A DNA stretch of 64,000 nucleotides from Antedon mediterranea (Eukaryota > Animalia > Echinodermata), in contig NC_092679.1 in NCBI RefSeq assembly GCF_964355755.1, positions 4,184,201 to 4,248,200 of the forward strand, written 5' to 3'. The first letter of the stretch is position 1; each line of letters opens with the position of its first letter. The position numbers were made by a program, and so were the translations under genes. Of this stretch, positions 1-50,620 are shown one piece after another. The notes beneath the pieces were generated by a model. It made no database searches, was not told where the DNA came from, and saw only the letters and a list, made by a program, of their open reading frames with translations.

Positions 1-2172
1 AAGCAATTTCCTGGTGTATAGGCCTAATATAGTATATTAAATTCGGTCAATTGAAGCGATGTGCTTCCGTCCGTAGACTTTCAGTTTGTTGAAGTCTAAT
101 GGTCGTCTGTTGTCCCATTGAAAACATTGAAAATAATATTAATTTTTTTTGTTTTTGTTGAATATGCCATTTCAATTTCACAGAAAACAGTTGACAATTT
201 GATCGAAACATATGTAACTTTTTTATAAACCGGTGCACAAAAAACATTTCTGTTTATCATACATTCCTATAATTATCGAGCCATTAACACACAAACATAC
301 AGGGGTGAAAACATAACCTCCTTGGCGGAGGTAATAACTAGAATTTAATTCGTTACTTTGACGAATTATAGGTGCTCATTTTTATAATTTTATTGACATT
401 CATATTTTGCACGTATGTTAACATACAATCGGAAAATGTTGATGCCATCCTATTATACGCTTAGTGTTGAGTTGTGCCTATATATGCCATATACATTATG
501 TACAGTATATACTGTATACGGTATCTATATACAGTGTAGCACCTACTTTTTAACTCCAACTGGCCATATGATAACGTCACAGTATCTGATAGGCTTAATT
601 TTTATATGAATACATATCTACATTGCACCAGCTCTCATAATAAGTTATAAACATCAAGGTCAACTTTAATTCAGAAGAGCTGTAAGGTATTCAAATTTAC
701 CTTGTAAGTGAAATTACGTAACCACCGTTATTTAAATTTTAAGACGTGATGACGTTATCCAAATGAAAATCTTGGCAACTCATAAGTAACATAATTGGTT
801 GAGGTAGAATATATTAAAAATTAAAAGAAAATTGATCACAGATAAGCGAGTTGCGCTCTGTTGAATATGGTGGTCTATGACAAAAGGGGAAAAAACCCTA
901 TTTTAAAAATTCATGTGGCCAAATGATGACGTCATACCATTTTGTACGTCTAATGTGTATATACATTTATATCATGGAGGAAAAACCCTCCATGTTTATA
1001 TCTACAACTCATTGGCTTCCATAATAAGTTAAAAAAATTGGGGTCACCTTCCATTCTGAAGAGTTATATTCATTTTAAAAAGGCTTTATTTTTTACCATT
1101 TTTATCACTTTTGTACAATTAATGTGCGCATTTTGTCTTTTTTTTAACGTGCTCGTATAGCACTATTTTAAGTCGAAATGGACTCAAATTTGGTGACTGT
1201 ACCAAGGAAGATGAGTAGAATGCAATTTGTACAAAAAAATGTATTTTTTACGCTTTTTATGTACGCACGCGCAAAAACGTGTTTTTGCGCAGTAATTTTT
1301 TAAAACATGCAAATGCTCTAAATTTTATTTGCTAGTATTTTGACCTTGACCTGAAGTTTACCTGTAGTGAATTTCATTAATATGTGATAGGCCTAATGAA
1401 TTATGGATTTCAGGATTAAAGTGATGAGTTACGTCATTTACTCAGAACTTGCAAAGTTGGGTGAGAAGAAAAGGGCATTGCAGGAAAGGAGTGGTTCTTT
1501 CAAACCCTCGTCCGCTGGCTCCCTGGTAAGATGTTGAAAGGACATTACAAAATATCCAAAATATTGTCTTACAACATCAAGTGTTCGAATGGAGCATACA
1601 CCACGTGATAAAAATGGGAATTCCCCGTCGACGATCCAGGAAAAATAAACATAACCTTTGACATAGAGCCTGAATGAATGAATGAGCACCATGTATGTAT
1701 TTCTTTGTTTGGTTTTTGTACCGATTTAATATTCTTTCCTAAACTAAATTTTCGAGGTGATTGCTTTGAATACTGTACACTCGTGATTGATCCTGTTCGA
1801 TAGAATTTGAGCCTCTCTGTCGGGACAATTCCGTGACAAAGAAAGAGCAAGGCTTTCTGAAGCACCAACAGCTCCCTAACTAAAAGATAGGCTAGGTCTT
1901 AATAATCGACCGTCATCATTTGGCCTGCACCATTTGGCCTACATCATCGGGCCTAGCCTAGTAGACAATTTTAGGCCTACTTACTAGGTAATTTTGTACC
2001 CGAATTTGCAATAAACATTTTTTATGTCGTTTTTTAAATTAGAGTTACACAAAAGTGTAAGATTTTCGCTAATTTTTTTTTTTTTAATGCCCTCTTAATT
2101 AAAGTGTACTCTTAGTTATTGTTTTTTTACAGTATGCACAGTGTCAAGACTAGAGAAATTTATAATGAAGGG

Positions 2173-4917
2173 ATGGTGTCCAGATATTATATTATTTGTT
2201 ATGCAGTCATGCTATTAGTGGTCGTGTCTGCAAAAAAAATAAAAACTGAAGAAGAAGGTAAGAGATTCGTTCTTGTTTCTGTAGACTGTAGTACTAGTAG
2301 ACAATTGGTTCAGGGAGTAATTTCTTACTTTGTACTACTAGTTTTTTTATTTATTTGTTTAATTAAACTTTAGCAGGGTAACCCTAAACAGCATATTCTG
2401 ACAATCAAGGGGCCCTCATATAACATATAAAAAACATACATGAAAAAAATATGAACTATATGAAAAAAAAAAAACTACTATGCTCTGTTACTGCTAAATT
2501 GTCCGGATTTGATCTTTAAATTTAGAGAACATAGAGTTAAATCCTTTAGTCAAAATGCTAAGATTTAAGTTTGTGAAAGGGCAGGGTTGAATCCATCAAA
2601 TATTCTCTATCCTTCCCTGGCCACACCCTCACAACTTTAATCTGATATTTTAAATTAAGTGACACCTAATTTATTTAATTCTGAATGTTATATATTTGTT
2701 ACGTTCTTAATATTTTTTATTTGAAATAAAGGATGATTTTATTACTATTATTGATACTTAATATTATTATCCTACTGCCCAAATGTTTATATACAAATTA
2801 GAGATTACGTTAAAATGAAAATATTTCATGTTTGTGTGCTAACATAGGTGGTTATAATACTACAGATTTATTACAATTACATCCAGTGATAACATCCCCA
2901 GCTGTAAGTGGACCATATGAAATGGTTATAGGAGAAACTCTGCATTTATCTTGCAACGTCAACAAAAAAGTAGACTATGTAAGTTGATATTGTGTTGGTT
3001 TGGTAAACATTGACAAAGAGTGAAAAAAAGGATAGAATAGTTGTAAGAAATGATGAGAAAGATAAAACACAAAACATTGCATACAGATGAGTAACATTTT
3101 TTTCGCTGAGGCCCAACAACAAAATTTGATCAAATGAAAAAGATGGGCTTATATTTGGATACGGACCTAAGCCTTATCATACCAGGGTGGGACAATTTTA
3201 AATATTGTGTTTAAAATTTACCATTGACTTAAATTCAATTTAAAGTTATTTTTGTTTTCCAGAATTTTCAGGGCCACCGGCCAATATTCATGTGGTGGTG
3301 TAATTCAACTGCAAAGCCTTGTCATAATAGTAGCGCGCCATTATTATGTAACATTTGTATTAATGTAACCAAAAGTGGCAATGAGGCTAACACATCCAGT
3401 ACTGAATTGACTATTGAACATGTCACCAAGGCCAACACCAGTACATATACCTGCATTGCATTTACTGATGATGATGACTATAGTGCCAGCCCAGTAAATA
3501 TCAGTATTCAGGTCATAGTTCACGGTATGTGCTTTTGAATAAATATGGCAACATACTGTCTCATTTGTACATGCTTACAACAAACAGCTAACACTAACAG
3601 ATAAAGAGTACAGCTAATGAAAAACATCTCAAGTGTACAGCTAACAATAAACAGCTAAAGAGTACATCTAACAGCTAACAACAAACAGCTAAAGTGTACA
3701 GCTAACAATAAACAGCTAAAGAGTACATCTAACAGCTAACGACAAACAGCTAAAGTGTACAGCTAACAATAAACAGCTAAAGAGTACAGCTAACAACATA
3801 CAGAAAGTGTACAACAATAAATAAAATAGTACAGCTAATAACATACAACTAACAAAAACAGCTGTATTATTATTATTCATTATACAACTTTTACAATTTT
3901 AGATCTAAAAATCGATAAACTATTCAAAAAATAAACTTCTCGAACAACAATTTTCTATATTAAACTTAATAATTGATGTTTTACAGAAAAAGTTAAACCA
4001 AAGTTGACAGTTACACAGAGTGTGATTAAAACTATAGGAAGATTTGTTGAACTTGTTTGCATCGATAGTGTGGGCTACCCAACTACTAGTATTTCATGGT
4101 ATAAGGATAGTCATTTTGTACATAGTGGTAGGCTTCTGCGATTAGACAATGTTAGCCACCATGATGCGGGAGTATATCATTGTTCCGCAGTGAATCGTTT
4201 CAATCGAGTGAATTCATCTGTTATTCTCAAGGTTCAGGACGATAGTAAGATGAAATGAAAGGCTTGTACCCTTTTCACATGTGCCTTGAGAAATCTTGGG
4301 AGATAAAGCTTAGTTGCGCGCTATTTGATTACTATGACTGGTCAGTTTAATACCAGGGCAATACATGCGCGCAGTAAGAACTCGGGACATCTCGGAACAA
4401 AAAAACATCCTCTCATCAGTGTGTTTTTTTTTCTCCAAAATTGTCTTAACAGTATGCAAACATTTTTACAACTTTGCTTTTTGCAGGTGTGAAAAGGGTA
4501 TAAAACCTCTATTAGTTTCCAATACTTTTTTTCACATTAATGTGAATTCAAATCTACACATTGAAAAATAACCCATACTTTCTGAATGAGGTTTAAATAT
4601 GAGCTAAAGGGTTTTGACTTGTTTTAACTGTGAGAAAATCCTAGTACTGGGTACGAGGATTGAACCAATTTCTGTGGTTTTTTTTTATAATGATATTTAT
4701 TTTTATTTTCATAGTGATATTTATTTATTTTTATAGTAATGACATCTTTTTCTTTATCCTGTTTATTACATAAATGGATACTTTTGTAAACTTCGTCTTA
4801 TTTTGAATAGTTTCAGAATCATTCACTAAATATAATGTGATTGTAGGCTGTCCAGCAGCACTATTTGCAATTATTGGTAAGCTTTGTTGTTATTTTTGCC
4901 TTCATAGCCGTCCATAG
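2173..4917 (+). CDS. Two-Ig-domain cell-surface protein, paralog A (signal peptide, Ig1, Ig2, hydrophobic C-terminal segment)
   Basis: GT-AG exons at about 2173-2257 (MVSRYYIICYAVMLLVVVSA signal peptide), 2866-2978 (GETLHLSCNV), 3263-3524 (FMWWCN...STYTCIA), 3987-4244 (VELVC..VGYPTTSISWYK..DAGVYHCSAVN) and 4811-~4917 (NVIVGCPAALFAII). Phases are compatible. The 3' end is uncertain because there is a possible donor at 4877. Confidence 0.8.
3583..3862. repeat. Degenerate tandem repeat of ACAGCTAA/GTACAGCTAACAA units in an intron
   Basis: Repeated acagctaac/aaacagctaaagagtac motifs. Confidence 0.8.
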
Positions 4918-5866
4918 CTTTTTTGTGTTGCTGTTTAACATTGTGAGGTTTTTGTACAATAATGCGTTAGGCTGGTTAAAAACTAGGCAACCTGTAGTAT
5001 CCTTAAGTTGTGCATGCTTCATTTACTCTCTATTCTTAATTCTGGCCCCGAAACCTTGACTCAGAAATACCGGGATGGTGTCCGGCGGGGGATAGTTTTA
5101 CCATAGTTAAGCTTAGTTACATTTTTTTTTCACATTATTGATTGTCTCCATCCCCGAAACCTCGACTAAGAAATACCGGAATGGTGTCCGGCGGGGGATA
5201 GTTTATTACCATTAGTTAAAGTCTAATGTAAAGCGGGGTCAGTGATCCATTAGGCGCTATATAAATACTGTTTATTATTGTTATTATTATTATTTATAGA
5301 ATAAAAAAAAGCGCCCTTTAGTCAGTTATAATTATATTCAAGAGGACAGAAGCATTAGGAAAGTATCACGAGGAAGCTTATAGTTACTAAGGCTGAAAAA
5401 TGAATAAAAAATAAAAATAAACAAAACTAATTGATAATAGATCATTATTTCTTAATTATTAAATAGAATATCAATTTAAAAAAAGTATCATTTAATGAAG
5501 AAAGAACAGTAATTAAAACTATTGATTGGTGTTTTTTTTGTAAGAAATATTTCTTGTTTATTATGAAACAGGTATTTCTGTTTGGATTTACATACGAAAG
5601 GTTCAGGAGAAACGTAATTGCAGATGCATGTCCAACCCAAGCCAGGCAGAAAATGAAAATCTGATTAATTAAGAGCAAGATTTGTCCCTAACAATTACCA
5701 ACAAAGTTCCAGTTATTTGTGTTGTCTTTAATCAAAGGTAGGTCTTATCTAGGCCTATTACAAAACAAAAGTGTGTGACATTATATTGAAAGCTCTGTCC
5801 ACACTATCAAAGTAGTTCGACCAAAAATGTGGATGCCATTAAATTGAAATATACTGTACTAACTAA

Positions 5867-6009
5867 AGCTCTGTCCACACTATCAACTAGTTTGACAACA
5901 AAATGTGGGATGTGACCAAATATGGTATTGATATGATGTCATCATGTCCATATATGGGCACATCACATTTGTTTTTGTCACATAAAGTTTGATAGTGTAG
6001 ACAGAGCTT
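5867..6009. mobile_element. MITE family 1 (TIR AGCTCTGTCTACACTATCAAAC), PIF/Harbinger-like. Further copies at about 14405-14496, 22026-22155, 24372-24500, 32627-32772, 36580-36720, 37975-38122, 42604-42740, 48058-48198, 52369-52505 and 61540-62048
   Basis: About 140-bp palindromic element with a shared core GTGATGTGCCCATATATGGACATGATGATGTC. Flanked by TAA/TTA, e.g. taa-agctctg...cagagct-taa at 5864 and 48055. Confidence 0.85.
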
Positions 6010-7553
6010 AAGTTAGAGTGGTAATTGAGTTCTGTTGGCTCATTTCTGATCAACTTGGTAAAACATGGTATAAACATAAACAGTGGTTATTTTTGAAAAC
6101 ATTTATTTTTTTTCAATTACAATTAATTACAATTGCATTATTGCAACAAAAAAAGTTGACCTGGTCAGTCACGCTTGTGCTTTTTAATTATAAAACTAAT
6201 TTATGCAGCTTTTTTGAAAATTAGGAAATTATGCAAATAAAAAGAATGCAGGTTAATTTATCAATAATTTTGATATAATACTGCGTATATATTTATATAT
6301 TATTTATAGTTTTTATATTATATAAATTTCATATATACGTCATGAAACACCGTGGGAAAAAATCTATACTGTTTATAGGTACAATTTTTTTTTGTCACAA
6401 AAACTTCTTTTTTACAATTTTAATGACTTTATGTTAGTTAGTTTTCTACAGATGAAATTGTATAAAAAAAAATTTTTTTTAGGCTGATTTTACTTAAATT
6501 TGTTTGTATAGTTGCGTGACAATGTTTAATGTGTCATGACAAATATGTACAGTACTACTACCTATTCAAAAAATAAATTCTCTTTTAATTAAATACAAAT
6601 ATACAATTTAATGAAGAAATATGCACTCTGAACATTTAATATAGTAAGTACAGCCTCATATTTTGATCTGAGTGGAGTCACTAAAACTTTGATTTCCACT
6701 TGGATGCAACGACATTGGCACAAAGTGAGGTGACCAATCACAAGCGACAGTTCAGATGGTCCATCACGTCGTGATTGGTCAAATTATTGACGCCCTCTTA
6801 TTTCCCACTGATTGCATCCAAATGGGAACCAATCATTAGTGTCCATTCCTTTTAGTTGGTTTAAAGTTTATTTTAAGATTTTTCATTCAGCCTTGTTGAA
6901 GATATGTAAATATTATAAAAGTGTATATGAATACAAAAATGTCGACTTTCATAAATAAATTGCGTTTATTTCAATTTTTTTTCTAGGAGTAATACTAAAA
7001 TCTACATTGGTTTCACCCCCCCCCCCCATGTACATACTCCGCGATACGCTGTGTTTGTTAAGGGGCATACAACCGATTGTGTCGCAGCCACAGATAAATC
7101 CTTTAATCTCTGAAACTCTCCATTCTGTTGTTAGATTGCCTTGGTTGAACACTGAAATTGATCTAAATTGAACTAAATCTAGGAAGCAAAAAGCATGCTT
7201 GGTAATTTACACTAGTGGCTATATCTTATAATATCTAACATTATATAAATAATATAATATTTATAATAATAATAATAGTGTATAAACATTAATATCATTA
7301 GTTTTTCTACTTTAACGCAGGAACTCTGATTTGCTTTGAAACAAATCCTAAACCCTAACATCCTCCTAAATATAGGAATACAGTATATTTTGTTGGTTAA
7401 AACACAACCATATTATTACAACACTTACATTCATCAACGAATGTGTTATCGTTATATTCTCAATGATACATACAAAAATACATACAAAAATACATAATAT
7501 TTTGTATTTTTTACGGTTTGTATGTTTGATGTCTTTAATAAATAAATTCTCTT

Positions 7554-8083
7554 CTTAAAGATGTATTGACAAATTTAAAAAAAAAATAAAAATTCCGAAA
7601 AAAGTGGATCATTTTGAAGTATTATAATAGTTATTAACTTTCACCAAAAATTAGTCTAAAAAAAAAATCATTTAACTGAAATACAGATGTTTTTTTGTTC
7701 AAAAAATAACTTTGACTTCCAGTCAAAGTTTTCGATCAAAACATGTCCCATAATGGAACGCGGTTGTTTGTCTACTCTGTATGCATAATCATAAAACTTC
7801 CTCGCGATCTGTGTGAAAACACCTTCTTAACAGTGATGAGTTGTACACAATCCAAATTAGCATATGCATAATGCATACTCGTGGTTTGAAATCTTTGTTT
7901 ACTTTAGCTCGCGACGATTTTTCAGACGAAATGTAATAAAACTAATTTACCTGTTAATTACGTAAACTTGTTGTTTTTGGCTCGAATTTTGAATAACTTT
8001 AATATTACTTTGATATTGCCAATTTAAATTTAGAATATTTTGACCTTCATTTTTTTGTGTTCCAAGAGACAATACATCTTTAA
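7554..8083. mobile_element. Non-autonomous DNA element with TTAA flanks (Kolobok/piggyBac-like); related shorter copy at 10021-10267
   Basis: ttaaagatgtattg...caatacatctttaa terminal inverted repeats. Confidence 0.6.
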
Positions 8084-8091
8084 ATAATTTG

Positions 8092-8114
8092 AAATAAATA
8101 AATAAATATAAATA
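8092..8114 (-). promoter_or_regulatory. Candidate AU-rich element (overlapping AUUUA) in the 3'UTR of the IL-1-like gene
   Basis: The minus strand reads UAUUUAUAUUUAUUUAUUUAUUU about 70 nt after the stop codon. The AT-rich background lowers specificity. Confidence 0.4.
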
Positions 8115-8180
8115 TGTATTTTTATATAGAGAATGTAATTAGAAATACAGAATTCAATTATATTGAATTATAGGACTTTT

Positions 8181-10927
8181 TTATCTGTCACTTGGCCCTT
8201 CATCTGTCATAAACATTAGCGCCATTGGATTTGTTAGTGAAGGGTAACGGTCTGACCGGAGGTACATTGCGTAATTGTCGGGTGACCTTGCGAGATAAAA
8301 TGGTGTCCTTGCGTACTCTTTGTTGAATTGTTGATTGATCATGAACAAGAAGGAAGATGAACCCCACGATACGGGTTGTATACAGAAGAATGCTGAAAGT
8401 CCTTCCTGAAAATAGAATAAAATGAATTATAGTATAATGCACTGTTATTAATATTTGTTCCCAAAAGGTTTCCAATTTGTGAAATGTCAATTGTACATTA
8501 TAATACATACACTGCATTGTTTTGTTTAGTTCGTACTACCTTGTTTCCACTTCGGTTTTGTTTGAATAAAAAAAGTTGATGGATGTTTTGAATGATCATT
8601 TGTTTGATTGATTGATCATTTATTTTTATCGATTGATTGATTAAATTGGTTCAGGTTTGCTTGCTTGTGTTATGCCACAAATCCTGGAGATTGGTTCTCA
8701 CTAGCACGCAAGGCAAGGGCGTAAGCACAACCAATCATCCATCGCGTCGGGATAGGTCAATTTACTTTCGTTGCGCTTATGTACGTGCGTTGCGCTTACG
8801 TACGTGTGTTGCACTTACGTACGTGCGTTGCGCCGTGCGTTGTGTTCAAGTGGAATATAACAAATAATCACAAATTCAGACTTACTATTTCGTTAACTTT
8901 TATTTTATCTGTGTTAACGGCCAAAAGAATGACCTTGTCGTCTTTCTGGTAGATACATAGCTGATATGGAAAACTGTATTTGTCTGATTTTGTAGGATCA
9001 TGCATCATCAGCTGTACCTGATTGTTGCGCGTCTGACTAATCTTTCTAAATTGTATTTCAGCTGTAATAAAGTATAATTTAAAATGAATATGAAAAAATG
9101 TCATTAGCTGAAAGGTTAAATACGTAATGTTTTTTAGATAAGTTACTTTTATACGAACTCTGGAAATTTCTTGGGGAAAACCAGATGAATGCGTTTCTAT
9201 CAATCAATAGGGGCGTTTTCAAATTATTGTTTTGCAGAAGTAGGTTACAGCTGAGCTCGCCATGTCAAGATAGGAACTCGTAACAGCCCTTTGATCTTAT
9301 GTCTGGCTGCGACAAATACAGTGCAATCGTACTGCACTGTACTATGTATATTCTCCGCGGTGTCTGTTAAAGGAGCGTGGAACTGATCGTGTCGCAGCCA
9401 CAGATAAACCCTTTGATTGCCGGAGCTCAGCATCCTGATTTTTGATTGCCTTTGTTAGTTTCTGCTCAAAATATTAAAACAGTACTTACATGCTAGGCTC
9501 TTGTTTTTATCATAAGCGTATCCTTTAAAATCAACACTGTAGCCTTTCAAATTTGATGGCAGGCCTACTGCCGCCTTCTTTGTTATCTGCAGTGCATTTC
9601 TTCCCATATTTTGCTGATTTGACCAAGGCAAAAAATGCACAATGTCCCTGTCTGCGGGATACTAAAATTTGAAATAATAATTAGAATGCATATTATTTTA
9701 GGCCCCTATGTTAAAATGGCGACCATCTTGGATTTCAACATGGTTGCTAAACGAAAATATTTACTTTAATAGCAATATATTTGGAATCTAAGTAGGCCTA
9801 TAAATATAGACACCATTTTTAACCTGCTATGTTACTCTATAACCCATCTTGGATTTTAACATAGCGGCTGAAATAGTATTTATAACTTTAATAACAATTT
9901 ATAACATATTATTTGGAATCCTCAGTATCACAAACGTATAGGTATAGATACCATTTTTAACCATGCTATGTTACCACAAAACGATTCAAAGTAGTTGTTT
10001 TAACGAACACTATTTTCCAGTTAAAGATATATTGTCCCTCTTAAAAAACTGTTTTAAATTTTTGTTGAATACCGGTATGCCAAATAATAGTTATTCACTT
10101 TGACCAGAAATTGGATCGAAAAAAAGTCAAATTGGCTGCCAGCCAATGAGTTTTTGATTTATTTTATCAAATTCAAAAATGTCCACTTAATAAGTCAAAA
10201 CATTATTTTCAGATAAAACCACAAAAAGTCTTGATTTTTCATGTTTTGGTGGACAATACATATTTAATACAATTGTCCCCGTTCGATTTTTTTTCTTTAA
10301 AGAACCGGAAGTTTGGGTGCGGTCCCGCCGTCACATGAACAATGATTTATTTACAGCACCCGGCCACTCGGGGAATTTCCCCAAAACTAGCAAGTATGAT
10401 TTGAATACATATTCGAACAATTAATTATGGTTAATGGTAGGCCCACTTAATCAATCATTGCCTCTTAGTTTAAATTTCTTAATGTACGTTATCTACTTTT
10501 GTTTCGGCTGAACTTGTACTAAAGATTCGTACGATGATTGTATTAAATGTAATCTAGGGCTCTACCGGTATTTGACCCGCATCCACAATAATTTGAAAAC
10601 TAATTGAAAGTGCTATCAATTAAGTATGGTATAAAACATCAGGATTGGTTTCCACTTAGACGCAACGCAATGACGTAAGCGCGCCGCAAGTACTATTTGA
10701 CCAATCACGCCCTACGTGTTTGCGCTACGTTCAAATGGGAACCAAGCTTTAAGTATATTCGTGGTTAAGAAACTTACCCTAAGTTCGATTTCGGCGGGAG
10801 GGATGGGATACATGCTATCGACTTGATCATCTCCTCTCAAAACTTCATTGTTATTGTATCCTCCAGCTGGTTGCAATTTCTCTGAATCTGATAGATATTT
10901 CTGTTCTTCTGTCATTATAGGCGGCAT
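8181..10927 (-). CDS. Leaderless 240-aa protein, putative IL-1-family-like beta-trefoil cytokine
   Basis: Four exons: 10927-10778, 9661-9490, 9061-8886, 8405-8181 (150+172+176+225 nt). Canonical GT-AG sites, phases 0/1/0, continuous ORF. The gene model is well supported; the family assignment is inference from strand pattern and intron positions. Confidence 0.7.
9250..9455. repeat. Interspersed repeat; copies at about 52005-52205 and a partial copy at about 7045-7150
   Basis: Shared ctgagctcgcc..aagataggaact..tttgatcttatgtctggctgcgacaaat..gtcgcagccacagata with an internal inverted repeat. Confidence 0.75.
10371..10380 (+). promoter_or_regulatory. Perfect NF-kB site in intron 1 of the IL-1-like gene
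   Basis: GGGAATTTCC within GGGGAATTTCCCC; matches GGGRNWYYCC. Confidence 0.55.
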
Positions 10928-11019
10928 TATAGTTTTGCTGTAACTAATACGTTTTGCGTATAATATGAATAGTATGTTTTGCTGCTTAGGCTTTACTGAT
11001 GATAGAAAAATTCGTCGAG

Positions 11020-11155
11020 TCTATATAAATTGTACTTTGATCGTTAATCCTGATAAGATGATTGGTTGACTTGCGTTATTGCGTCACTCGCCGATACTTA
11101 TGAACTGAAATATGAAAATGAAACACTTCACTGTAACATATTTAGGGATTTTTCA
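11020..11155 (-). promoter_or_regulatory. Candidate proximal promoter of the IL-1-like gene (TATA-like, CCAAT, C/EBP-ATF-like TTGCGTCA, IRF-type GAAAATGAAAC, Rel-type GGGATTTTTC)
   Basis: Motifs at about 11022, 11060, 11079, 11114 and 11145, within 230 bp upstream of the ATG at 10927. Confidence 0.45.
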
Positions 11156-13727
11156 TTATTGCATCAATTCTATATATGGATACTGTGTTTTTTATTATAA
11201 CTTTATTGTGTTGGAATTTGGCGGGTGGGAATAAATAGATCTTTGATTTTTGCTTAATCATGCCTGCATGCACCCCGCGAGTGCACCCCCTGCGCGTGCA
11301 CTAGACCAGGGAATAATGGATGGTGGGTACATGTTTTATACATAGTCGTACGTCAAGCTATATTTTTTCTTGGTATTAAAAATGTATGGCAAAGTAAGAA
11401 GGCATCTACGATGGTGTGTTTTTTTTTATTTTGATGCAAATAAAAGATCCTTTTTGTTTGCAACCAGCTACCTATACCATTAGCTCCCCCACTCCACCAC
11501 TGTTCCCCCATACTTCTATTCCTTCCCACTATCTCTTCCACACACCCAACCGCCCCTCCCCCACCCCACCATATCTCCTATACTCCACTTATCTCAACAC
11601 CCCATCAAGTTGTTATATTTTCATTCATTCATTCGTTTTATTATTCCACATAAAATAAATCATTTTAAATCAAGATATCCTTGTTACGGTTTTGTTTATC
11701 GGTGGATACGTTCAAAGCCGAAAGGGGCTTTCGGGCTGAGTTTCCAAAGGACATTATATTTTTGTTTATGGTAAGGTAAAAACAACAAAAATACGCAGGA
11801 TGTTAGAAGTGAAACCAGAAACAACTTTCATTCATTCAGCATAACTATTTTCTATTGTGTTTGACCATAGATCCGGAACTATTCCATATGAAGCATATTT
11901 ATGTGTTCATTCATTACAGTAGTATTTGTTTATACTAGATTTCCGTTTTTACTAATAATTATTTTCTATTGTGTTTGACCATAGATCCGGAACTATTCCA
12001 TATAAGGCAGATTTATGTCTTCATTCATTTGTAATTACAGTAGTATTTGTTTATACTATTACTAGATTTCCGTTTTTACTAATAATTATTTTTACGTTTT
12101 CCCAATCCGTTTAAGGTATATACAATAAAACCGCTATATGAGACCATTGTAGGCCTTATGCGTTTGAATTTTCAACTCCCCGGAAAAAAAAAAACTTTTT
12201 TTATGCATCAAAAATAAAAGGAATTTCGAAAGATGTTTTGCAGTTAAGATGTCCCATGTGTGGGTGCCGAATACTCGTGATGCCGGTCACAAGACGTTAC
12301 TGCAAATGTAAGCTGAAACCGGCAGATATATAAAAAGAAATAATACATTGGCTTGAAATGGGAATCCCCTTCTGAGGAACCGCTCAAGCATGACGTGGAA
12401 TTCATATTGTATAAGCATCCTCATTGTTTCTTCTAAAAATATCGGGCTTTTTTTTATGAATTGAAGTGAAAACCGTGGAGGAATTATTTAGAATAAACTC
12501 ATTATTATATTGTTTACTTCAAAACGCATTACAATGGAAATATTTCAGTCGTGTGTTTGTGTTTGGCATTTTGCTTACGTTTTTGTTTTTAAAACTGATA
12601 GCTATACCCCTCCCCTTGAATAGCCTTCGAATAAGCCCAAGCCCGTTCTCATAAAAAAAAATTAATAAATAAACCAAAATATAAAAGACTTTTGTGTGGT
12701 TTTGAGTTGTGCCTTTGGAAATTCCCCGAGTCGAAATAGGCTTTTGAAAAGCATCACGGTAGCCATTGAATACACAGCAGAGGGAGTTGTAATTAAAACT
12801 CCCTGAATACAGCAGTTATAGTGTGCATGATCATAGAGATATCGGTATGATAATGTCAATTGTTAAACTGTTAAGATTTTGCTTTCTGTTTAGCCAGGGG
12901 TGTATATACACAATTCTAGAATGATGAACATGAATTAATAAGTTTTCTTTCTTTTTCCCCGAATGTATTAGGCCTACTAGGTTTACCAAATACACTAGAA
13001 ACCAAATTTAATGCGCGAATATGCTACGATATGAGGAATTATGATAATATACAAAACAATTATGAATAAATAAACTTGGACTTTGCATCATAACCTGACG
13101 CAAAGGTATGACACTAAACAGGACATTTATAACAACAATGCATTGAAAACGACATTGCATTATTTTAACATGACTAATATTATAACACAAACATAATTAA
13201 TTTTATCAGCAAGGTTAATGTCCGAAAACCATTGTTATACAAATACTGCTGAACAACTGTAAATAATAATTTAAGGATTTGGAAGATACTTTGATGACAG
13301 ATCCGGTGCATTTATCACTTATTTGGTCTAACAAGCTATCACACTGACGTAAGTACCGATTCGTAACGTAGGCCTATATTGACAATAACACGGTTGCTCT
13401 GGGGCTGGAATCGAACCCACCGCTCCCACCAGATTATTACTAGCCTGACCATTGGGCTTCTCATTGATTATGGCTACGTTTGATTCTCTTGTAACAAATC
13501 ATTTAAATTATACTTCGCACCACCGCAATTAAAAATCATATGTAAAATATTCTGTAGCCCTACTGATGATTGAGGAGCCTACGTGGTAGGGATTGGGATT
13601 CCAATGGGATTTGAACCTGCGACCTCCAATATACATACTTCGTGAAATGTGTCTTGTGACAATGCCACTGTACTGTTCCGTAACAACCTCCTATGACAAA
13701 AACAAGGAAACTTGGTTCTTTCCGGTA

Positions 13728-13762
13728 TGACTCAACTTTAGGGGAAATTCCGAAAATGAAAA
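13728..13762 (+). promoter_or_regulatory. Compact AP-1 + NF-kB + IRF-type element upstream of Ig paralog B
   Basis: TGACTCA (13728), GGGAAATTCC (13742) and GAAAATGAAA (13752) within 35 bp, about 100 bp upstream of the ATG at 13863. Confidence 0.5.
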
Positions 13763-13862
13763 TACCTGCGTTTTATATTTAATCACTCCTCGTATTCTTA
13801 TGTTATGGTTACAGTATTTCAACATAATATCCGCTGCAGACTTTAATGGAGTTGGTGCTAAA

Positions 13863-16800
13863 ATGAAACCGTTCTGCAGCTGTACGATTATGTACTTATT
13901 GGTGGTAGTGTTTAATGGCTTTACAGTTAGTGGTATTGAAATAATCAAGTCTTTCTCACAAGATAATTATTGTAATAAGAAATCAGGTAATAAATACACA
14001 ATATTGTTTATAAAATAGACCTACTTTGATGGATTGTAGGCCTATAATAAAACTTTATGTGACAAAAAAATGTGATCTGCCCATATATGGACATGATGAT
14101 GTCATATTGGTTGAAGGTTCTTTGTAAATTCTTTTATTATTGATATATTTGGATATTTCTTAAATAATTTATAATAAATCTATTTTTTACTTGTTTTTTT
14201 TAGTTTTAAACATGTTAAACTTAGGCCTATGTGTTAGAGAAAAGATATTAGTTAAATTGTTTTTTGGAGTTTCTGTGTTATATTATTTATATTTTGTTTT
14301 GAGGAGCCTATTCACCACAAGCTTTGCTTTCTTTTAGGCTCCTCCACTTTATATTTATATATTTGTAAAGTGAAATAAATAAATGAATGAAATGAATTGA
14401 AAATATTTGGGCATATCACAACCATATTTGTGCACATCACATTGTTTTTTGATTTTTTTTTTTTATTGTCACATAACGTTTCATAGTGTAGACAGACTTG
14501 TTGGTGATTGCATTTGAAAATGCCAGCCATCATTTTTTTGGCCTCTAATTATTTATCGCTTAACTTTATATTATTTGTAATTTTAGTGTTTTTTTTCTTA
14601 TATTATTTTGATGTATTTTTCCGTAGAGAGCCGCATGACTGTTATTTTTATATTGATTTACCTTTCGGTCTGTTTTCATGTACGCTTTGTTAATAATAAT
14701 GGCGAAGCCTGATATGATTATGATACTTATAATTATTATTTAAACTACCGTTTTACATTAAAGGTTCGTTTGAAAAATACTCTTTTTTATAGAACATTCA
14801 GCGCTTCAAACAAAATTACCTTGTTTTTGCCCGAAAGAATGGTATGATGGTCAATTTTTAAAATCTCTATGTCCCACGATTGAAACACGAAAAAAAGAAA
14901 TACAGTTAATTAAAGGAGAAAATGTAACTTTTGAATGTCGTGTGTCTAAAAAACTTGGACCGGTATGTATAATGTTACACTACTTTATCAAATATTAATA
15001 GTATAGGCCTATTATACCGATTGAATTAAAATATAGAGGATCGACACCCCTTTATATACTTGGTTCCCACTAGGACGCAACGAAAGTAATTGACCAATCG
15101 TAGGCAATTATATTATATTCGAACTGTCGCTAGAGCTTCGTTCTCACTATAACGCAACGCATGCGCAAGACTCAAACGCAATGCAAGCGTGTTGACCACT
15201 GACAAGCGACAGTTCAAATAATCCATCGCTTGTGATTGGTCAACTCACTTACGTTGCGTCCACGTCCTTGCGTTGCGTTCTAGTGAACCAAGCTTAATGT
15301 CATTGGTCAACTCGCTACGTTCTTGCGTTGCGTCCTACATGCAGTATAGTATAGTGGGAACTTACTTTTCCCATAAAACGAATGATGGCAATATGTGTTT
15401 TCACTAAACGACCAACCCACAGGGGATACCCATATTTAAGCGTGGTTCCCACTAGCGACGCAACGCAAGGACGTAACGCAACGCAAGTGAATTGACCAAT
15501 CACAAGCGATGTCTTATTCGCTTGTGATTGCTAACTGTCTATTCGCTTGTCATTGGTTAAAACGCTTGCGTTGCGTTTACGTCCTTGCGTTACGTTCTAG
15601 TGGGAACCAAGCTTAAGAGGGGAATGTGTCGGGTCCCCGGAAGGGGCTCTGGGTTCTACAAATAGTGATAAATGATTTCCTATTTGATAAAATTACAAAG
15701 ACTATAACGAAACGTATCAAATTTGTGACATTTTATTGTATAATTTTCTATTACAGGACCCCCACTATAAAATTCGTATGTGGTGGTGTAATGGAACGGC
15801 GGGTGAAAAATGTTACACGAATGAACAAGCACCTGACCGGGGCACGCCTACTTATTTTGTCTATTCAGAGAGTGGGTATGAGGCTAAGGAGTGGTTTATA
15901 CGTTTCACCATCACGAACGCCAGCAAAATGGATGAGAATACGTACACGTGCGTGGCAAACACGGAGGATTTTGATTATACAGAAACTCCGGGCTATAACA
16001 GCATTCACGTGTCTGTACATGGTAAGTATTTCTTTATTGTTATAAATAAAATGATTATTTCTTTTCTTAATGAACTCACTTCTGAGGACGATCCAAGCTT
16101 ATTGATCGAAACGTCGAGAAACTCAACAGTTCTTTTCAAAACTAATAAACGTGGTGTACCGCAAACTTTATATCAACACTTAATGCACTTGTTAATAATG
16201 AAAAATTCCCCTCTATTTCAGATGCTGTTAAACCAAATCTTATTTATCAACCACCGCCAAAAGTCAACAAAGTTGATGGTAGACTGGTAGAACTGTACTG
16301 TGCTAGTAGTGGATATCCAGAGACTAATATCCAATGGGTTAAAAATGGAACACCACTAACAAACGGCCTAAATAGCACCAACATTATACAATATGGAAGC
16401 CAATCAGTTTTACAGATTAAATCGATAACTGAGTCGGAGGAAGGAACGTATCAATGTATTGCGTCTAATAAATTAGATTTAATTGAATCACAAGGAACGA
16501 CGGTGACAGTCGGTAAACAACAGCAAAGTAAGTCTCCGTAAATTTAACAATATTGGTATTGGTAGATATTTCGAAATAAATTTGGCGGGAAATTTGGTCA
16601 TGTGGTTCTTATTGTTTTCGTTGTTTTATAGAGTGGAGTTGGTTCATTTGTCTATACATAGCAATAATGTCGTTCAGTGGTGTCGTCACAGCCATAGTGT
16701 TGGTGGTAGTATGCTCAAGTCGGCGAGGTTGGTCTTTTTACGATTTTGATATTAACTTAACGATATTCGTTCACGTCAGTGGAGTGATTAATACCAGCAA

Positions 16801-17063
16801 TTCAATATTGTGTATTATATAACACCTAAATACCTGTCATTTGATTGACGAATGTGGGTCACATGGCGTGCAATAGTACGCACTATTAAACGATCGTTAA
16901 ATAGTACTTTTTCGTGTATTATAATATACGATTGAGAAATCATTTTTTCCGTTTTTCATTTATAGAAAAGGAACAATTTGACTCGGCTGTGACTGTCGAT
17001 GGCCGTAGAGCATGTCATTCGTACTCGCCCATTCCACAAGTGTTACTAATAAACAACGTATAA
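13863..17063 (+). CDS. Two-Ig-domain type I membrane protein, paralog B (short cytoplasmic tail, no TIR or kinase domain)
   Basis: Exons at about 13863-13986 (signal peptide MKPFCSCTIMYLLVVVFNGFTVSG), 14839-14961 (GENVTFECRV), 15757-16021 (RMWWCN..DENTYTCVA), 16222-16527 (LVELYCASSGYPETNIQWVK..EGTYQCIASN), 16632-16727 (TM WFICLYIAIMSFSGVVTAIVLVVVC) and 16966-17063 (tail ..HSYSPIPQVLLINNV*). Confidence 0.85.
15439..15613. mobile_element. MITE family 2 (TIR AGC[GT]TGGTTCCCACTAG, GCAACGCAA-rich). Copies at about 6690-6832, 8690-8855, 10645-10749, 15059-15295, 25907-26069, 38824-38979 and 43224-43420
   Basis: Terminal inverted repeats, shared TTGACCAATCACAAGCGA core and TWA flanks (Harbinger-like). 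Confidence 0.85.
16078..16118 (+). ncRNA. Candidate minimal hammerhead-ribozyme motif of the Penelope-like-element type
   Basis: ctt-CTGAGGA-c-GATC...GATC-GAAACGTC-gag: core boxes, 4-bp stem II, palindromic ACGT stem III and only about 3 bp of stem I. Confidence 0.4.
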
Positions 17064-17829
17064 CAGAAGAAGAAAGTTTTTATTGAAGAACAAAGTTGTA
17101 TTGGGACAACAATAAGGGGCACCCAACCAAATGTCCCCTATAAGTAATAGGGTTGTCCCTAAAATAAGGTTTCGTAGGTTGTAGTGGTAAAACCATATTA
17201 TCCCCTCTTTCATTATGGGGAAAGTGTCCTTTTAAATAGGGTTTCTTCCTGTGTCCCATGTCTACTATTGTAATAGAGATTACTATTGTAATAGAGATTA
17301 CTATTGAAATAGAGAACGCCAAACACCTTGTTTATTTATTCGACCTTTAATAATTTGAGAACGATATTGAAAACAAGATATTTTTTTTTTTAAAGTTTAT
17401 TTTAAGATATGTTATTCACAATTCTAATTCATTCCAGGTGAACTGTACGGGAATATTTTATAATATTAACAATAAAATGGAAATAAATATTATTTATATT
17501 AGTTATTACAAATAATAATTTTATTGTATCGTATTCCTTATGTTTATGGAAATTTATTTTTTGTTATTCCTATCTTTAATTAGTTTAATAAGTAAAAAAT
17601 ATATATAGTTTATGACCGGCCATGTTTACAACAACAAAAAAACAGCTTTAGATGCTACCTTGGAAAACAATAGATCCATGATGCGACAAATCGATATAAT
17701 GAAAAAAATCCCCGAATTTGTTGTTCAAAAGTCATGTAAAAAAACAGACAGCGCCACCATGCACAATAACTTTTTAATGAGCTTGCATGCTAGCCTCCAA
17801 TAAAAGACGTGACGGACGGATAAACAAGA

Positions 17830-20800
17830 ATGGCTTCAGATTCAGGAAAACAGCTTGTCAAAAGTAAGAGTGGATTACGTATGATAAGTATTGAGGAGAA
17901 GGACAATAGTCCCTTTCAACTTTTAGAGCCACCATGGGTACCAGATATGCAGGTGGGTATGCAAGTTGTCAGTGAAGTCTAGCCTAGGCCTAGCCCTAAC
18001 TAGCCTAGGCTAAATAGGCTAGGCCTACGGGTATTCAGGCCTACTACTAGCCTAGGTAGGCTAGGCCTAGCTAGGCTAGGCTAGCCTTAGTAGGTAGGCA
18101 GGAGGCTAGATAGCTAGGCTAGGGCCTAGTTAGGCCTGCCTGGGCCCACCCAACTCCACCAGGCGCCTTAGTAGGCTAGAGTAGTAGTAGATAGCCTAGG
18201 CTAGTAGCTAGGTAGTATAGGTAGCCTAGCCTAGTTAGCTAGCCTAGCGCCAGGCCCCTGCAGGCCTGGCCTAACTAAGCCTAGCTAGGTCTACACAGGG
18301 CCTAGCTAGGCTAGTAGGGCCTGGACCTAGGCTAGGCCCTACGGTTGGTGAGCTGATTAACAATCAAGGCAAGAAAAGGGGAGGGCTAGCCTAGTCCTAT
18401 ACGTTAATCCTATCTATCTAGGCCTATTCATTTTAACGCAGTGGTTAGGAATCCGGCACCGGAACTCAACTGCACATTGTAACAAATCCAGACAGAAACT
18501 TTACACACTGAGAACTAAACCTAAAACTAAAAACATCCCTCTAGGCAATGGTGGGTAAAGACGATGATGGATAAAGACGATGGTCAATAAAATACAATTT
18601 TTTGAATAAGAAAAAAATTCAAAATATATAAAGAATTGAACCTACAAAATCTAGCCGCAGTACCACACCACTAAGCCAGCCAACCAGTCGGAAAAATTGG
18701 TGTGTACATGAGGTTATAAAAATGTGCATGCATGAGCAGAGGGGTGGAGGAGGCAGGGTGTATTTAATGCCTCTACTACAGTATTAACTATTAGTAAGTG
18801 TTAGCTTGTCAATTGTATGACCCACTATACGACCCCCCTGGGAGAGTTGCATAATTTGTCTGATGTGTGTGATACCATGACGCACCTGTCTGTGTATAAA
18901 AAATATGACTTGCCTTTAGGTGATTATGACACACCCATCTTTATGCACTGTGATCATGTTTATGATAAATATAGTGGGTGGTAAAGTAACGGGCACTGAC
19001 ACACCATTCATTGCACATTGTTCATTGATGTTGCGTACCATTTAGGTTTTTTGAGCACCCCTGCATCAATACTGATTTGTAAATGACGCATCCATGACAC
19101 ACCTCGCCCATGGATCGTATACTAGTGGGTCATACAATTGACAAAGTGCATAACTAAGACTACCTGATAATTGCTATTAAATATTTCTTTTTTTTTAGTC
19201 TAAAGAGTGTATTAAGTGCCATTCAAAATTTGACTTAATGAAGAGAAGGGTAAGGATTTCAAACGTTGTCGCATAAAATAATATATGACCACATGGCTCG
19301 AAATTGAAACAAACTCCGCAAATCTAACTTGAAAAATTTAAAAGCTAACTAGCAGACTATCAAACGTATATTTAAAAATAAATTACAACCAGCAAAATAC
19401 TTTGGAAATTTTTCAATATCAATTACAGTGGAGTTGTGGCTTGGTGGTTTATGATGCTTGGCTAACAATCCTGTTTTCAAGTTCTGTCAGTTTCTATTAA
19501 CAATTAACTCCACTCACAAAGACTTGTAATAAGAGCATCTTGTGTTGTTTGTCTTGTGAACATTATTCCCACCTTTTTGATAGTGAATGAATTTGCCTAT
19601 GATTTGCCTAAATACAGTATATATAAAAACATCAAAACAGTATGAAAAATCTACTTGCTATGCTAGCTAGTATATTATGGTGAATTTCAAGCCCTGTCGC
19701 ACAGTAGTAATTTATTCGTTAGCAGAAACAAAACTTTAAATCAGATATGCGTTTTCATTTAGCATCATTGTCGACGATGTGGACTTTGTTTCTGCAATGT
19801 CTGCTGTGCTAGTAAAGTCGGTCTTCCTCGGATGAACTTTGTTGACCCCGTCCGTATGTGTTCTGAATGTTCTGTTGTCACGAAAAAAGAAAATGAATTT
19901 TATGACAAGCATCTGAAGTGTTTGATTACTGGAAGTTTCTTCATGTTATCAGCTGCTGATGCTGACGAAGATAACATTGTGACATATGTCAAGCTCACCG
20001 CTAACCACAGGTGAGTCTCTCGTTTTATCCATGTCCCACCAAATGTCCATTAATTAATATAAAAAAGTAAATAAATAAAAGTGTATGCATGGTATGATCT
20101 CGAGTCAACCAGCAGTGAAGTCAACTGATACTAAGTGTGTGTGTTCAGAAGAAGATGGCTACAAGAACAGTAATAACATTGCTCAGTCTTGTACAATCCT
20201 ATTGGTCCAAGTACAATACTTAAAATATCTGGTCAACAAACATAACCACCTTCTTTTGTGCCTGGTTGTCGTGTCATAGTTTCCACAGTAGGCTCAATCT
20301 CATTGAATAGATCTGTACTTAGTGTGTCACTTTGCAATCACATTTCAAGCCAAATAAACAATAAACAAACATCTAATTCCCCTTTTCATTCCAATAAAAA
20401 AAAATGTTATAATAGTGTTTTGTATAAAACTTAGGGGTGACACAACATTAGGCACTTTATAAATCCAGGATATTATTATAATCTTACTGTACAGTAATAA
20501 TGGTAATAATATTTATTTGGATCAACACTTTTTTAACAGTGGCACACATGCGTAAATGGTGCTTCTATACAAATTACAAAATTTAAACAACACAATTACT
20601 TAAAAAACTATACACAAACAATGGAAATTAAAAACTGAAACTAAAACATTTATCCTATTTGATTGAGAACTAAAATATAAAATTTGACTAAAGGCTTATT
20701 TACAAGACTTTTTAATACAACAACTAATTTTGCAACAGCAACGGAAAAGAAAGCACACATTTTAAAATAAAACAGTTCAAAATTGTTATAGAATTCAGTA

Positions 20801-31903: not shown

Positions 31904-34900
31904 ATGATGGATATTGAGAAGGAGCACCACTGCTGCAGTAGAATCAGCTATCATTGCTTTAAATGCAAAAAAGAAAATACAGCTACACCTACTAAAACTA
32001 AATGTAAATACCACCATAAAGCATGTATTGGTAGGTTTCATGGCAACAGACCTCACCGTAACTCACAGACCTCACCGTAACTCACAGACCTCCCAAATTG
32101 TACACATTTCAAAGATGTTCTCTTTCTTTGAAATCTTGATTAAGTTGAGCATGGAGGTATAAAATTAGGTTTATAATCTTATACCTCCATGAGTTATTGA
32201 TAGAAACAAAACAGTTTGCAAAGCTTTTTATAAATATACAACAGACCAATTACTGTTCTCCGCATAGCACTGGGGAAGAGTATAATTTCACTCTTTCCTG
32301 ATATCACCAAGCAGTAATGCTCTCTTGCCAATGACAACTTCTTTTATTATCTTTGTGTGATAATATATGATAACAAATAAAAATGTTGTTTATAGCAAAG
32401 TATGTGGAAAATTCTTAAAGCATAATACATGTAAAAGAAAGAACCCCATTTTACATATCAAATTAATTTAAAAAATCAGTTTTTAAATTATAATTTCAAA
32501 ACAGGTACCAACAAAGTATTCAATGTATTTATAAGATTTTTACATATTTGTAAACTAGCTATGTTTATAAATTTCCCATTTCCTTTCTTTAAACATATAT
32601 TACTGCTGTATTGTTTTCTTCTTTAAGGCGCTGTATACACAAACTTTGTGGGACAAAAAATATGATGTGCCTATAGATAGGCATGATGATGTCATATCAC
32701 TACCATATTTGGGCATATCACTACCATATTTGGGCACATCTCACTTTTTTGTCAAACTAATTTGATAGTGCTTAAAAATAGGCCAGATTGGATATCAAAA
32801 TTAAAGAAATAAATTGTTTCTATATATACCTAACATATCCTTAATTTCCATTTATTATGCTTCGTTTTAGACAACCCGACTTATGATGATACAGCTACTT
32901 ACAATGTAGTAGAATCGTCAACTCAACGAGGTCATCCAAAATTAGTTGACAGCAACGGTTATTCATATGTTAAACGGAAGACTTCCAGTAACTCAACGTA
33001 TTGGAGGTATACATTTTTTTTAATGCTGTGTATATGTAAGCATAGTGAATTATGGTTCTTTAAAAATTAGAGAAAGACTATTTTGAGGCAAAACATTTTG
33101 TTGCAATTTTGAGATAAGTTTACTGGTAAGTTTCTTGGTATTCAGTAAAGATAAGTTTACCGGTATATCTCTGTTAAAAACTGAATTGGATTGATTTAAA
33201 AAAAAAAAAAAAGACTACAGATATGCGCCTTCCCTTTTTCACAGCTAGATACCATACATTGTATATGCATACTAGCATCCATCAGCGAGCACAAACTCGG
33301 CAATTGCAGAATGGATAAACTATTTTATAATTTGAGGCTTAGGGAGTGGAGTTGAAAGAGTCATGAGTTACAACCCTGGCACTAGGTCAGGATTGAACCC
33401 TGGACATTGGGATTGAAAGGCAAGCACTTTAACCATCAAGCTACACCTCCACTTTTTGATTTATCTTACCATTAGAGCTCTCTCGTTACAACAATCTTGA
33501 ATCCCTGAACCTCTTGCATAGTGAAGTACAATCATTACAATTCCAAAAATCATAGTTTTAATTGAATTTTTATAATTTTTAGATGTTCTCTAAGAAATAA
33601 GAATATCACATGCAAGGCAACCGTGATTCAAAGGAGTCAGTGCATTCCAGAGTTTGTGTTTGGAAGTTGTTTTCATATCCATCTACCAAATCAAGGTGGT
33701 AGACCAAAATCATCTAGAGGTAAAAAATGAAACCCTATTAGTAAATTCTATTTTAATTGGTTCTTGTTTATGTCATATTTTGTTAGGGGTCCTAATGATG
33801 AGCTTTGGCTGAATGGACCACCCTCGTAATATATTGTTAAAATAAATTAATTAAAGGGGCACTATTTAGCAAAATCAAAATGGCCCTTTAATAGGGATTA
33901 GCCATAGTGTTAAAGCTCAGGTACAGGCATGAATTTTAAATATAATATTTGGTTAATTGTACATAAATCAAATATTTGTAACAGAAATCAAGACGAAAAA
34001 AAATGAATTTCCCTTAATATGGTCAAATACAAAATTTGGCAAAATTCTTCCATAAAAACCAGGAAGACTTTTTTTCAGTAGTTAGGTAGTTAACCTAATG
34101 TAATAACATGTATTGTGACTCCCTAGACGGTGAAAAAAGATTGTGGATATACGGTGGATAATTTTTGCTATAGCATGAAAATAAAAATCTGAAGTTGAAT
34201 AAAAATATCAGAAATGTAATATTCAAGTTATATTACCTATATTTATTCATCTGATAACATTTTTTACCACACCGTTTATTTTTCATAGCTTTTTAAATGC
34301 CTCTCTATTTACAAAATTTGTGTACAAAAGAATAGAGATTTTACTGTGTAATTTGAACTATCCCCCACTGATAAGAAAGTGCTTATTTTCAACAAGCTCG
34401 TGTAACACAAATAAAATTCCAACAAATTATGAAACATAGGGGAAACTATAGATCGATAATTATTGGAATGTATGATCAATAGAAATTTTTTGCCCGCACC
34501 TTTAAAACACATATTGCCCCTTATTTGTTTCACAAGATTGTGTACTGTACTCTTAATAGTGTTGTCCCCTGAATAAGTTTAACTTGGTTACTTATATACC
34601 ACAAGCAAGTTATATTTCACCAGTTTAAAGAAATTTGTCCTACAAATACTAAAACTAAACCACCCATATATTTCTCATCAATTATTCTGTTGTTTTTGTA
34701 AGCTACCTTTGACATTTTTGCTGTTTCTAGGTCGAATTATTAATTTAATTTTCTTACACAGTGAGGCGTAAAAATAAAGCAATACGTTCTACAGTTGATG
34801 CAATGAAATCTGAATCAGAGATACTTGTAAGTTATTTGCTATAAGTTTATTAGGGAGCAATTAGAAGGCAATCAAGCATAACATGCATCTGCACATGCTC

Positions 34901-50217: not shown

Positions 50218-50484
50218 CCAATTCAATCAAAGACCATCAAGTCACATGGAACGATCAAGGAGTGGTGTGGTGGTAAGGCTGAAATTCCGGACTATAAATG
50301 CTTGTTTCACGAAAGAGAAATAGTTTGAGATTATTCCTTAAATTTATAGTTTTTAATAACAATTAATCAAGTCAGACAGCATTTTAATTATCACAGAAAA
50401 AAATGTGTTCTAATTTGCTTTATTAATAATTAATATGATATTTGTACCATACAATTTATAAAACCTTGCTATAAATGTATATAG

Positions 50485-50551
50485 ATAATACTATACTTTC
50501 CAGTTTTAACTTCCAGTCTGGTTTTAGTTAAAACCTTCATCAATGTATTAT
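50485..50551 (-). promoter_or_regulatory. SECIS element (type II-like) of SELENOL
   Basis: Minus strand: AUAAUAC..AUGAA-GGUUUUAACU-AAAA-CCA GAC UGG A-AGUUAAAACU-GGAA..GUAUUAU. This gives helix I, the UGAN/NGAN kink-turn core, a 10-bp helix II and apical AA, about 70 nt after the stop codon. Confidence 0.88.
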
Positions 50552-50620
50552 ATAAATACACATTTCTTTAAACACAAGTTGTTGGTTTTTTTTTTCATGG
50601 GTTAAAAATTAAAAACCAAA

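Follow-up and report, generated by a model that had tools for sequence, protein, structure and literature searches.

A predicted leaderless beta-trefoil gene between two paralogous, TIR-less immunoglobulin-domain genes in the feather star Antedon mediterranea: a candidate invertebrate IL-1 decoy locus

The IL-1anc cytokines are found across the eumetazoans, with a subset devoid of the PDZ domain (Fontenla-Iglesias et al., PMC13736523; preprint PMC12338702). Their trefoil is coded by three to five exons, induction on infection and the caspase cleavage of one sea-urchin member have been described, and their genes are linked to putative IL-1 receptor (IL-1R) genes in cnidarians and ambulacrarians, so that an ancestral IL-1/IL-1R locus has been inferred; further IL-1 genes exist outside the GCC2/ESD/EIF2A/TRAF3 loci (PMC13736523). 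According to the same source, direct binding between an IL-1anc cytokine and its receptor has not yet been shown; the linked receptors are defined by immunoglobulin (Ig) domains, a transmembrane segment and a TIR domain (PMC12338702). Among receptors of related build, the TIR-less IL-1R2 inhibits IL-1 signalling (PMC9020223), and FGFRL1/nou-darake is present in invertebrates including the sea urchin and is loosely linked (less than 10 Mb) to FGF pathway genes (PMC2754479). Here, a stretch of 64,000 nucleotides from the feather star Antedon mediterranea (RefSeq assembly GCF_964355755.1, contig NC_092679.1, positions 4,184,201 to 4,248,200 of the forward strand; 'the window' in the following) is described, in which a gene coding for a predicted beta-trefoil protein (hereafter, the ligand) lies between two genes, A and B, coding for two-Ig membrane proteins without a TIR domain. 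The locus is a good candidate, and one that lends itself to testing, for an IL-1 decoy in an invertebrate.

Two paralogous TIR-less genes around a four-exon gene

Exon chains built from the sequence give three spliced genes, all intact and with GT-AG introns (table 1), at the positions proposed in an earlier note made by a model from the letters of this DNA. The exon models of all three are letter-for-letter those of RefSeq-derived A. mediterranea proteins and, therefore, agree with an independent annotation; since DNA contigs from two sequencing studies cover the region, the locus is no assembly artefact. Contigs of the sequencing runs cross introns, and among the joints listed none matches a model intron; on expression they are silent. 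Genes A and B, both on the plus strand, bracket the four-exon ligand gene, which is on the minus strand: the ligand gene faces A tail-to-tail at a distance of about 2.5 kb, and B head-to-head, as the earlier note had it, with 2,935 bp between the ATGs at 10927 (minus) and 13863 (plus).

A and B are paralogues, as had been claimed, with 35% identity over 201 residues (E 1e-29). They have a common layout (signal, half of Ig1, the MWWCN-containing half of Ig1, Ig2 and membrane segment) and common intron phases from the signal exon on (1, 0, 1, 1, 1, the phase-0 intron being inside Ig1). The identity of exon layout originally proposed holds to this extent, but not for the membrane segment, which is split over two exons in A and coded by a single one in B, nor for the start of A, where the coding sequence begins with an additional exon of 11 nt (1682-1692), a correction of the earlier model. 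The P0004 form of gene A starts from the ATG at 2134, and the ATG directly before the hydrophobic signal is at 2173. By Pfam and hydropathy, each protein has a signal segment followed by two Ig domains, a single membrane segment and a tail some 25-35 residues long; for A, hydropathy was computed on a model using acceptor 4847, which gives a shorter exon and has been rejected in favour of the annotated acceptor 4811.

Pfam recognizes only Ig families in A and B, no annotated isoform has more than a short tail, and a hidden TIR exon was rejected, the longest stop-free plus-strand frames after A and after B being 70 and 64 residues; the two are, therefore, TIR-less, as first described. Of the features of the IL-1 receptor family, A and B have the two or three Ig domains with one membrane segment, and lack the TIR domain.

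Read-through of the Ig2 exon reaches a stop within a few codons in gene A (4245-4258; 249 residues from the ATG at 2173) and likewise soon in gene B (292 residues), and unannotated soluble forms of both by intron retention are possible. The Ig1 exon of A has tandem acceptors 9 nt apart (3261-3271), the first of which is used in the annotated proteins; changes at 3269-3270 in contigs of two sequencing runs abolish the second AG. A tandem array with a 61-nt unit lies in an intron of A (3576-3803), and a 114-nt duplication is found between the divergent starts (11841-12092).

In Anneissia japonica, a crinoid of another family than Antedon, orthologues of the ligand (XP_033096555.1, LOC117100835) and of B (P0003; isoforms XP_033096556.1, 558.1, 559.1 and 560.1) are found. 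Because their records have consecutive accessions and an equal longest contig of 633,315, adjacency of the two genes is indicated there, and the ligand-B linkage is probably conserved in a second crinoid family, order and orientation in Anneissia being presumed. Between the two species B agrees at 69% of positions in Ig1 (84/122), 52% in Ig2 (51/99) and 19% in the membrane exon (6/32), the unusual Ig1 being, thus, better kept than the generic Ig2. The tail motif YSP(I/L), a YxxPhi motif of the class that serves endocytosis, is kept in B of both. One of the three annotated isoforms of Anneissia B (P0005) is devoid of exactly the 31-residue membrane segment; such a soluble form is annotated only for this orthologue, and in Antedon B it is possible in frame.

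The predicted trefoil protein and the NF-kB consensus sites

The ligand has no signal peptide by hydropathy, the best 19-residue window reaching 1.31 at residue 171. Its ESM Atlas model is of moderate confidence (predicted template modelling score, pTM, 0.62; predicted local distance difference test, pLDDT, 0.57). Seven of the ten Atlas structure rows give TM 0.49-0.55 over 138-165 residues, and, among the nine feature matches listed out of 30, all seven with a named family belong to what we take to be trefoil families (ricin-B, clitocypin, I66, CCL2-like and two IL-18 clusters). The IL-18 clusters, with PF00340 in 79% and 88% of their members, share the most features among the Pfam-bearing rows listed (129 and 127 of 256). 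A beta-trefoil fold over about residues 45-240 is likely from these models; the trefoil-like nature first proposed for this leaderless protein is, thus, retained, but on a model of moderate confidence. Strands drawn by eye amount to about 14 candidates in ambiguous register, versus 12 in IL-1 order, and AlphaFold2 models from a two-sequence alignment were unusable (pLDDT 29.3 for the full-length ligand and 31.1 for a trimmed form). Weak Pfam matches of the ligand (RsmF_N, E 0.063) and of exon pieces were rejected, as was, being taken for chance, the one weak unrelated match given by each of the PDB searches with the ligand, a two-member profile, exon 3 and exon 4.

By-eye comparison with published IL-1anc trefoils, to which no statistic is attached, finds FxGYxY (ligand residues 95-100) again in PminIL-1.4, 1.5 and 1.7, and YLA[RK]xP (residues 203-208) in AplaIL-1.5 to 1.7, with YLSRDP in PminIL-1.7; the two motifs follow in the same order in the ligand and in several of these sea-star proteins. 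The trefoil region lies on three exons, which agrees with the three to five that have been published, with internal phases 1 and 0, presumably those of vertebrate IL-1beta (human IL1B). Between the two crinoids the ligand is best conserved at residues 70-103 (76%), 126-146 (62%) and 220-236 (71%), versus 19-42% over residues 147-219. In IL-1beta, the face turned towards receptor domains 1-2 is formed by the first hairpin together with the last loop, and the conserved parts of the ligand would include both if its register is IL-1-like. In the kilobase after the trefoil stop (7181-8180, minus strand), a very AT-rich stretch, 10 ATTTA motifs are present, the density over the window being about 4 per kb; cytokine-like AU-rich elements 3' of the gene are possible.

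NF-kB consensus sequences are matched 16 times in the window, at 10 distinct sites, versus 1.76 matches expected, at least 16 being reached in none of 100 shuffles. The distinct sites are split evenly, with five in positions 1-17100 and five in the 46.9 kb that remain. Five sites in the first 17.1 kb were reached in 0/200 simulations and by 1/300 scrambled motifs, and four in the interval 10300-13900, picked post hoc, by 0/300 scrambled motifs; for sites near all three gene starts P is about 0.004, with uniform placement of 10 sites and a post hoc threshold of 600 bp. NF-kB consensus is, thus, enriched near the starts of A, the ligand gene and B, as far as matches to a consensus can tell. The site at B is 121 bp before its ATG and next to one of the four AP-1 consensus sequences of the window (13728). 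The earlier statement that all three genes have such sites nearby is upheld as to enrichment, but 'nearby' is looser for the ligand gene, because its own sites are in intron 1 and 1.4 and 1.8 kb upstream.

Table 1. Positions, in the window, of the three genes and of the consensus sites around them.
Feature	Position	Strand	Remarks
Gene A, two-Ig membrane protein without TIR	1682..5672	+	isoforms of 311-317 residues; models P0004, P0007, P0008
Gene A, coding exons 1-4	1682-1692, 2133-2257, 2848-2978, 3263-3524	+	alternative acceptor 2866 for exon 3
Gene A, coding exons 5-7	3987-4244, 4811-4876, 5572-5672	+
Leaderless, PDZ-less predicted beta-trefoil gene	8181..10927	-	240 residues; model P0001
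Trefoil gene, coding exons	10927-10778, 9661-9490, 9061-8886, 8405-8181	-	intron phases 0, 1, 0
Gene B, two-Ig membrane protein without TIR	13863..17063	+	352 residues; model P0002
Gene B, coding exons 1-4	13863-13986, 14793-14962, 15757-16021, 16222-16527	+
Gene B, membrane exon	16632-16727	+	96 nt; in-frame skip possible (computed)
Gene B, tail exon	16966-17063	+	carries the YSPI motif
NF-kB consensus, palindromic	1616..1626		56-66 bp upstream of first ATG of A (1682)
NF-kB consensus	10371..10381		intron 1 of trefoil gene
NF-kB consensus	12360..12369		between the two divergent starts
NF-kB consensus	12717..12726	-	between the two divergent starts
AP-1 (13728), NF-kB (13742), GAAA-NN-GAAA (13752)	13728..13761	+	34 bp, 102-135 bp upstream of ATG of B

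To the right of B, where 17 open reading frames were scanned, the neighbours include ZFYVE21, a RING protein, AhpC-TSA, DnaJ and PARP zinc fingers. The ZFYVE21-like protein (within 17830-64000) has FYVE and ZFYVE21_C domains, and CTAG-rich tandem arrays lie in the first intron of its gene (17979-18248). A lysine-rich reading frame on the minus strand at 26.3-27.1 kb has no Pfam match; several transposase-like frames occupy 32800-39400, one with a weak MULE match (37423-37821, E 0.001). The RING protein gene, at 41-49 kb, is presumably RNF8-like; the DnaJ gene is found at 54-57 kb and PARP zinc fingers from 57.6 kb. The AhpC-TSA_2 gene (about 50400-53300, minus strand) likely codes for a selenoprotein, which we take to be of the SelL type: just above 51799 its reading frame holds two TGA codons, spaced as in UxxU, and SECIS_1 is matched at 50487-50549 with 35.3 bits, the gathering threshold being 35.

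A putative ligand-decoy cassette, its alternatives and its known relatives

The reading that we hold tentatively, as possible rather than probable, is that the ligand is a divergent, PDZ-less IL-1-like cytokine, that A and B bind and damp it, and that NF-kB co-induces the trio. Infection would, through NF-kB/AP-1, induce all three genes, B and the ligand gene using a common 2.9-kb divergent region; the leaderless ligand would exit by an unconventional route or when the cell dies, its N-terminus of 30-50 residues being perhaps trimmed beforehand, and signal through an Ig-TIR protein encoded elsewhere. B and A would bind it by their two Ig domains and, since they cannot recruit MyD88, would buffer or clear it, like IL-1R2: membrane-bound B may clear the ligand via its YSP(I/L) tail motif, and B with the membrane exon skipped may sequester it in solution, again like IL-1R2. 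Ligand release, binding by A and B, co-induction and the decoy role are what we infer; a feather-star NF-kB-driven cassette complete with a very divergent IL-1 member that the published survey missed and two TIR-less binders in membrane and soluble forms is somewhat doubtful.

Several observations weigh against such a cassette. No sequence search ties the ligand to IL-1: even with E allowed up to 1, trefoil families are absent from its Pfam matches, the PDB searches mentioned above give one unrelated match each, and among 1.84 billion representatives the ligand matches only itself and one orthologue (48% identity). The Atlas IL-18 scores, all 0.87, are under the 0.9 bar and are a lead only, and the named trefoil clusters in the ten Atlas structure rows are ricin-type, IL-1 being in none. 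Pfam finds no PDZ domain in the ligand, the first exon of which codes for 50 residues, or in its Anneissia orthologue, and the (F/L)ES motif of strand 9 is absent at the likely position in both; the ligand is, therefore, IL-1-like and not a shown IL-1anc member. GCC2, ESD, EIF2A and TRAF3 were not recognized among the 17 reading frames scanned to the right of B. Asp37 has no counterpart in the Anneissia orthologue, where the alignment shows a 13-residue gap (Asp33 is matched by Asp30 there), and the boundary formerly proposed for the mature ligand, from residue 38 onward, is therefore unsupported. The synteny in a related genome that had been suggested as a check is probable for the ligand and B, but no Anneissia orthologue of A was found in a weak search (1 match among 11 candidates). 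As to regulation, five NF-kB sites in the remaining 47 kb (reached in 4/200 simulations and by 20/300 scrambled motifs), with a pair 19 bp apart at 53235-53263 between the selenoprotein-like gene and the DnaJ gene, mean that the motif also occurs away from the trio. Finally, no IL-1R, IL-18R or FGFR is near A or B among the matches listed (best 60 of 105 and best 60 of 141; 21/21 and 16/16 for the Ig1 exons; 10 + 10 ESM Atlas rows), which are all generic I-set/V-set proteins of the Robo, contactin, DSCAM, PTPR, VEGFR2, JAM-A, Fc-receptor and KIT/PDGFR types. The grouping with adhesion molecules that the earlier note had named as counting against its proposal is, thus, partly found; such searches are biased towards proteins with numerous I-set repeats and are poor at telling Ig domains apart, and the ectodomain comparison took in no crinoid or other invertebrate Ig-TIR sequence.

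These matches would also suit a reading, doubtful in our estimate, in which the ligand is IL-1-like and A and B are ordinary crinoid Ig-superfamily neighbours (adhesion or tyrosine-motif proteins), maybe co-controlled by NF-kB and non-binding: linkage can persist passively in two families that belong to a single order, and look-alike invertebrate Ig receptor architectures arose in parallel (PMC2858798). It accounts less well for two paralogues bracketing the ligand gene, one of them with an upstream region in common with it, for the NF-kB sites near all three starts, and for the wide linkage of IL-1anc genes to Ig receptors (PMC13736523). That the ligand is instead a non-cytokine trefoil, a crinoid-restricted, cytosolic or released lectin-like or inhibitor-like protein with A and B as immune neighbours, is unlikely, even with the ricin-type structure rows, the ranking of ricin-B, clitocypin, I66 and CCL2-like clusters around the IL-18 ones by features, and the absence of FES, PDZ and any published syntenic marker. 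The QxW repeat, hallmark of the ricin type, is absent from its sequence, IL-18 clusters are the only animal ones among the Atlas matches listed, and the sea-star look-alike motifs, as well as the presumed match of intron phases with vertebrate IL-1beta, speak for a cytokine.

A and B could also bind the ligand and promote signalling, as chains pairing with a TIR chain encoded elsewhere or via the tyrosine motif of B. Two paralogous ectodomains could form a receptor and accessory pair, and the motif is kept in both species, but IL-1R signalling needs two TIR domains together and the membrane-less B isoform fits sequestration better, which makes this quite improbable. Moreover, SQYSPL in the tail of Anneissia B presumably fits the consensus of an immunoreceptor tyrosine-based inhibitory motif, HSYSPI of Antedon not fully, and the TIR-less relative in vertebrates, IL-1R2, is inhibitory (PMC9020223).

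In the literature searched (titles and abstract openings, subscription papers being mostly outside), no invertebrate IL-1 decoy was found, neither the crinoid trefoil gene nor the TIR-less linked pair was found in print, and the identifiers of the Anneissia ligand orthologue had no matches; the list of three AjapIL-1 genes does not include LOC117100835, for which seven text supplements of PMC13736523 give 0 matches. If A and B bind the ligand, decoy-based negative control of IL-1-type signalling exists outside vertebrates, and a true cassette would make these genes the first IL-1 decoy system of an invertebrate, with an origin separate from that of vertebrate IL-1R2, and the most direct pair of candidates in which to show IL-1/Ig-receptor binding outside vertebrates; if A and B do not bind, the locus adds one more unlisted IL-1-like gene, a modest result. 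A small leaderless trefoil and two adjacent, easily expressed two-Ig ectodomains make a concrete pair for a binding test.

Among the known systems, the FGF/FGFRL1 pair is marked by an FGF domain in the ligand and three FGFR-type Ig domains in the receptor. The ligand described here has no FGF Pfam match, A and B have two Ig domains each, with no FGFR among the matches listed, and ligand and Ig genes are linked within 3 kb; the likeness is that FGFRL1 is a kinase-less Ig receptor for a beta-trefoil ligand (PMC2754479). In common with IL-1anc cytokines, the ligand is a leaderless predicted beta-trefoil of an echinoderm, with its trefoil on three exons, lacks the PDZ domain, as does a subset including the crinoid AjapIL-1.1, and has at least one Ig receptor gene linked to its own; it differs in the missing FES motif, in its neighbour genes and in the linked A and B being without TIR, whereas the published linked receptors are TIR-defined. 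The earlier note knew of no description of a ligand-receptor linkage of this sort in an invertebrate, which is partly wrong, since linkage of invertebrate IL-1 genes and Ig-TIR genes has been published (PMC13736523), but, the linked receptors being defined by TIR, a TIR-less linked pair is still unreported in the literature searched. Like IL-1R2 and IL-18BP, A and B have an Ig ectodomain without TIR and a short tail, with a soluble form annotated for the Anneissia orthologue of B; unlike these, they have two Ig domains, no detectable sequence affinity to them, and lie, as paralogues, directly around the candidate ligand gene. A and B share the lack of TIR with an IL-1R2-type decoy, and the Anneissia orthologue of B shares its soluble form as well; the putative cytokine that A and B would bind is coded between them.

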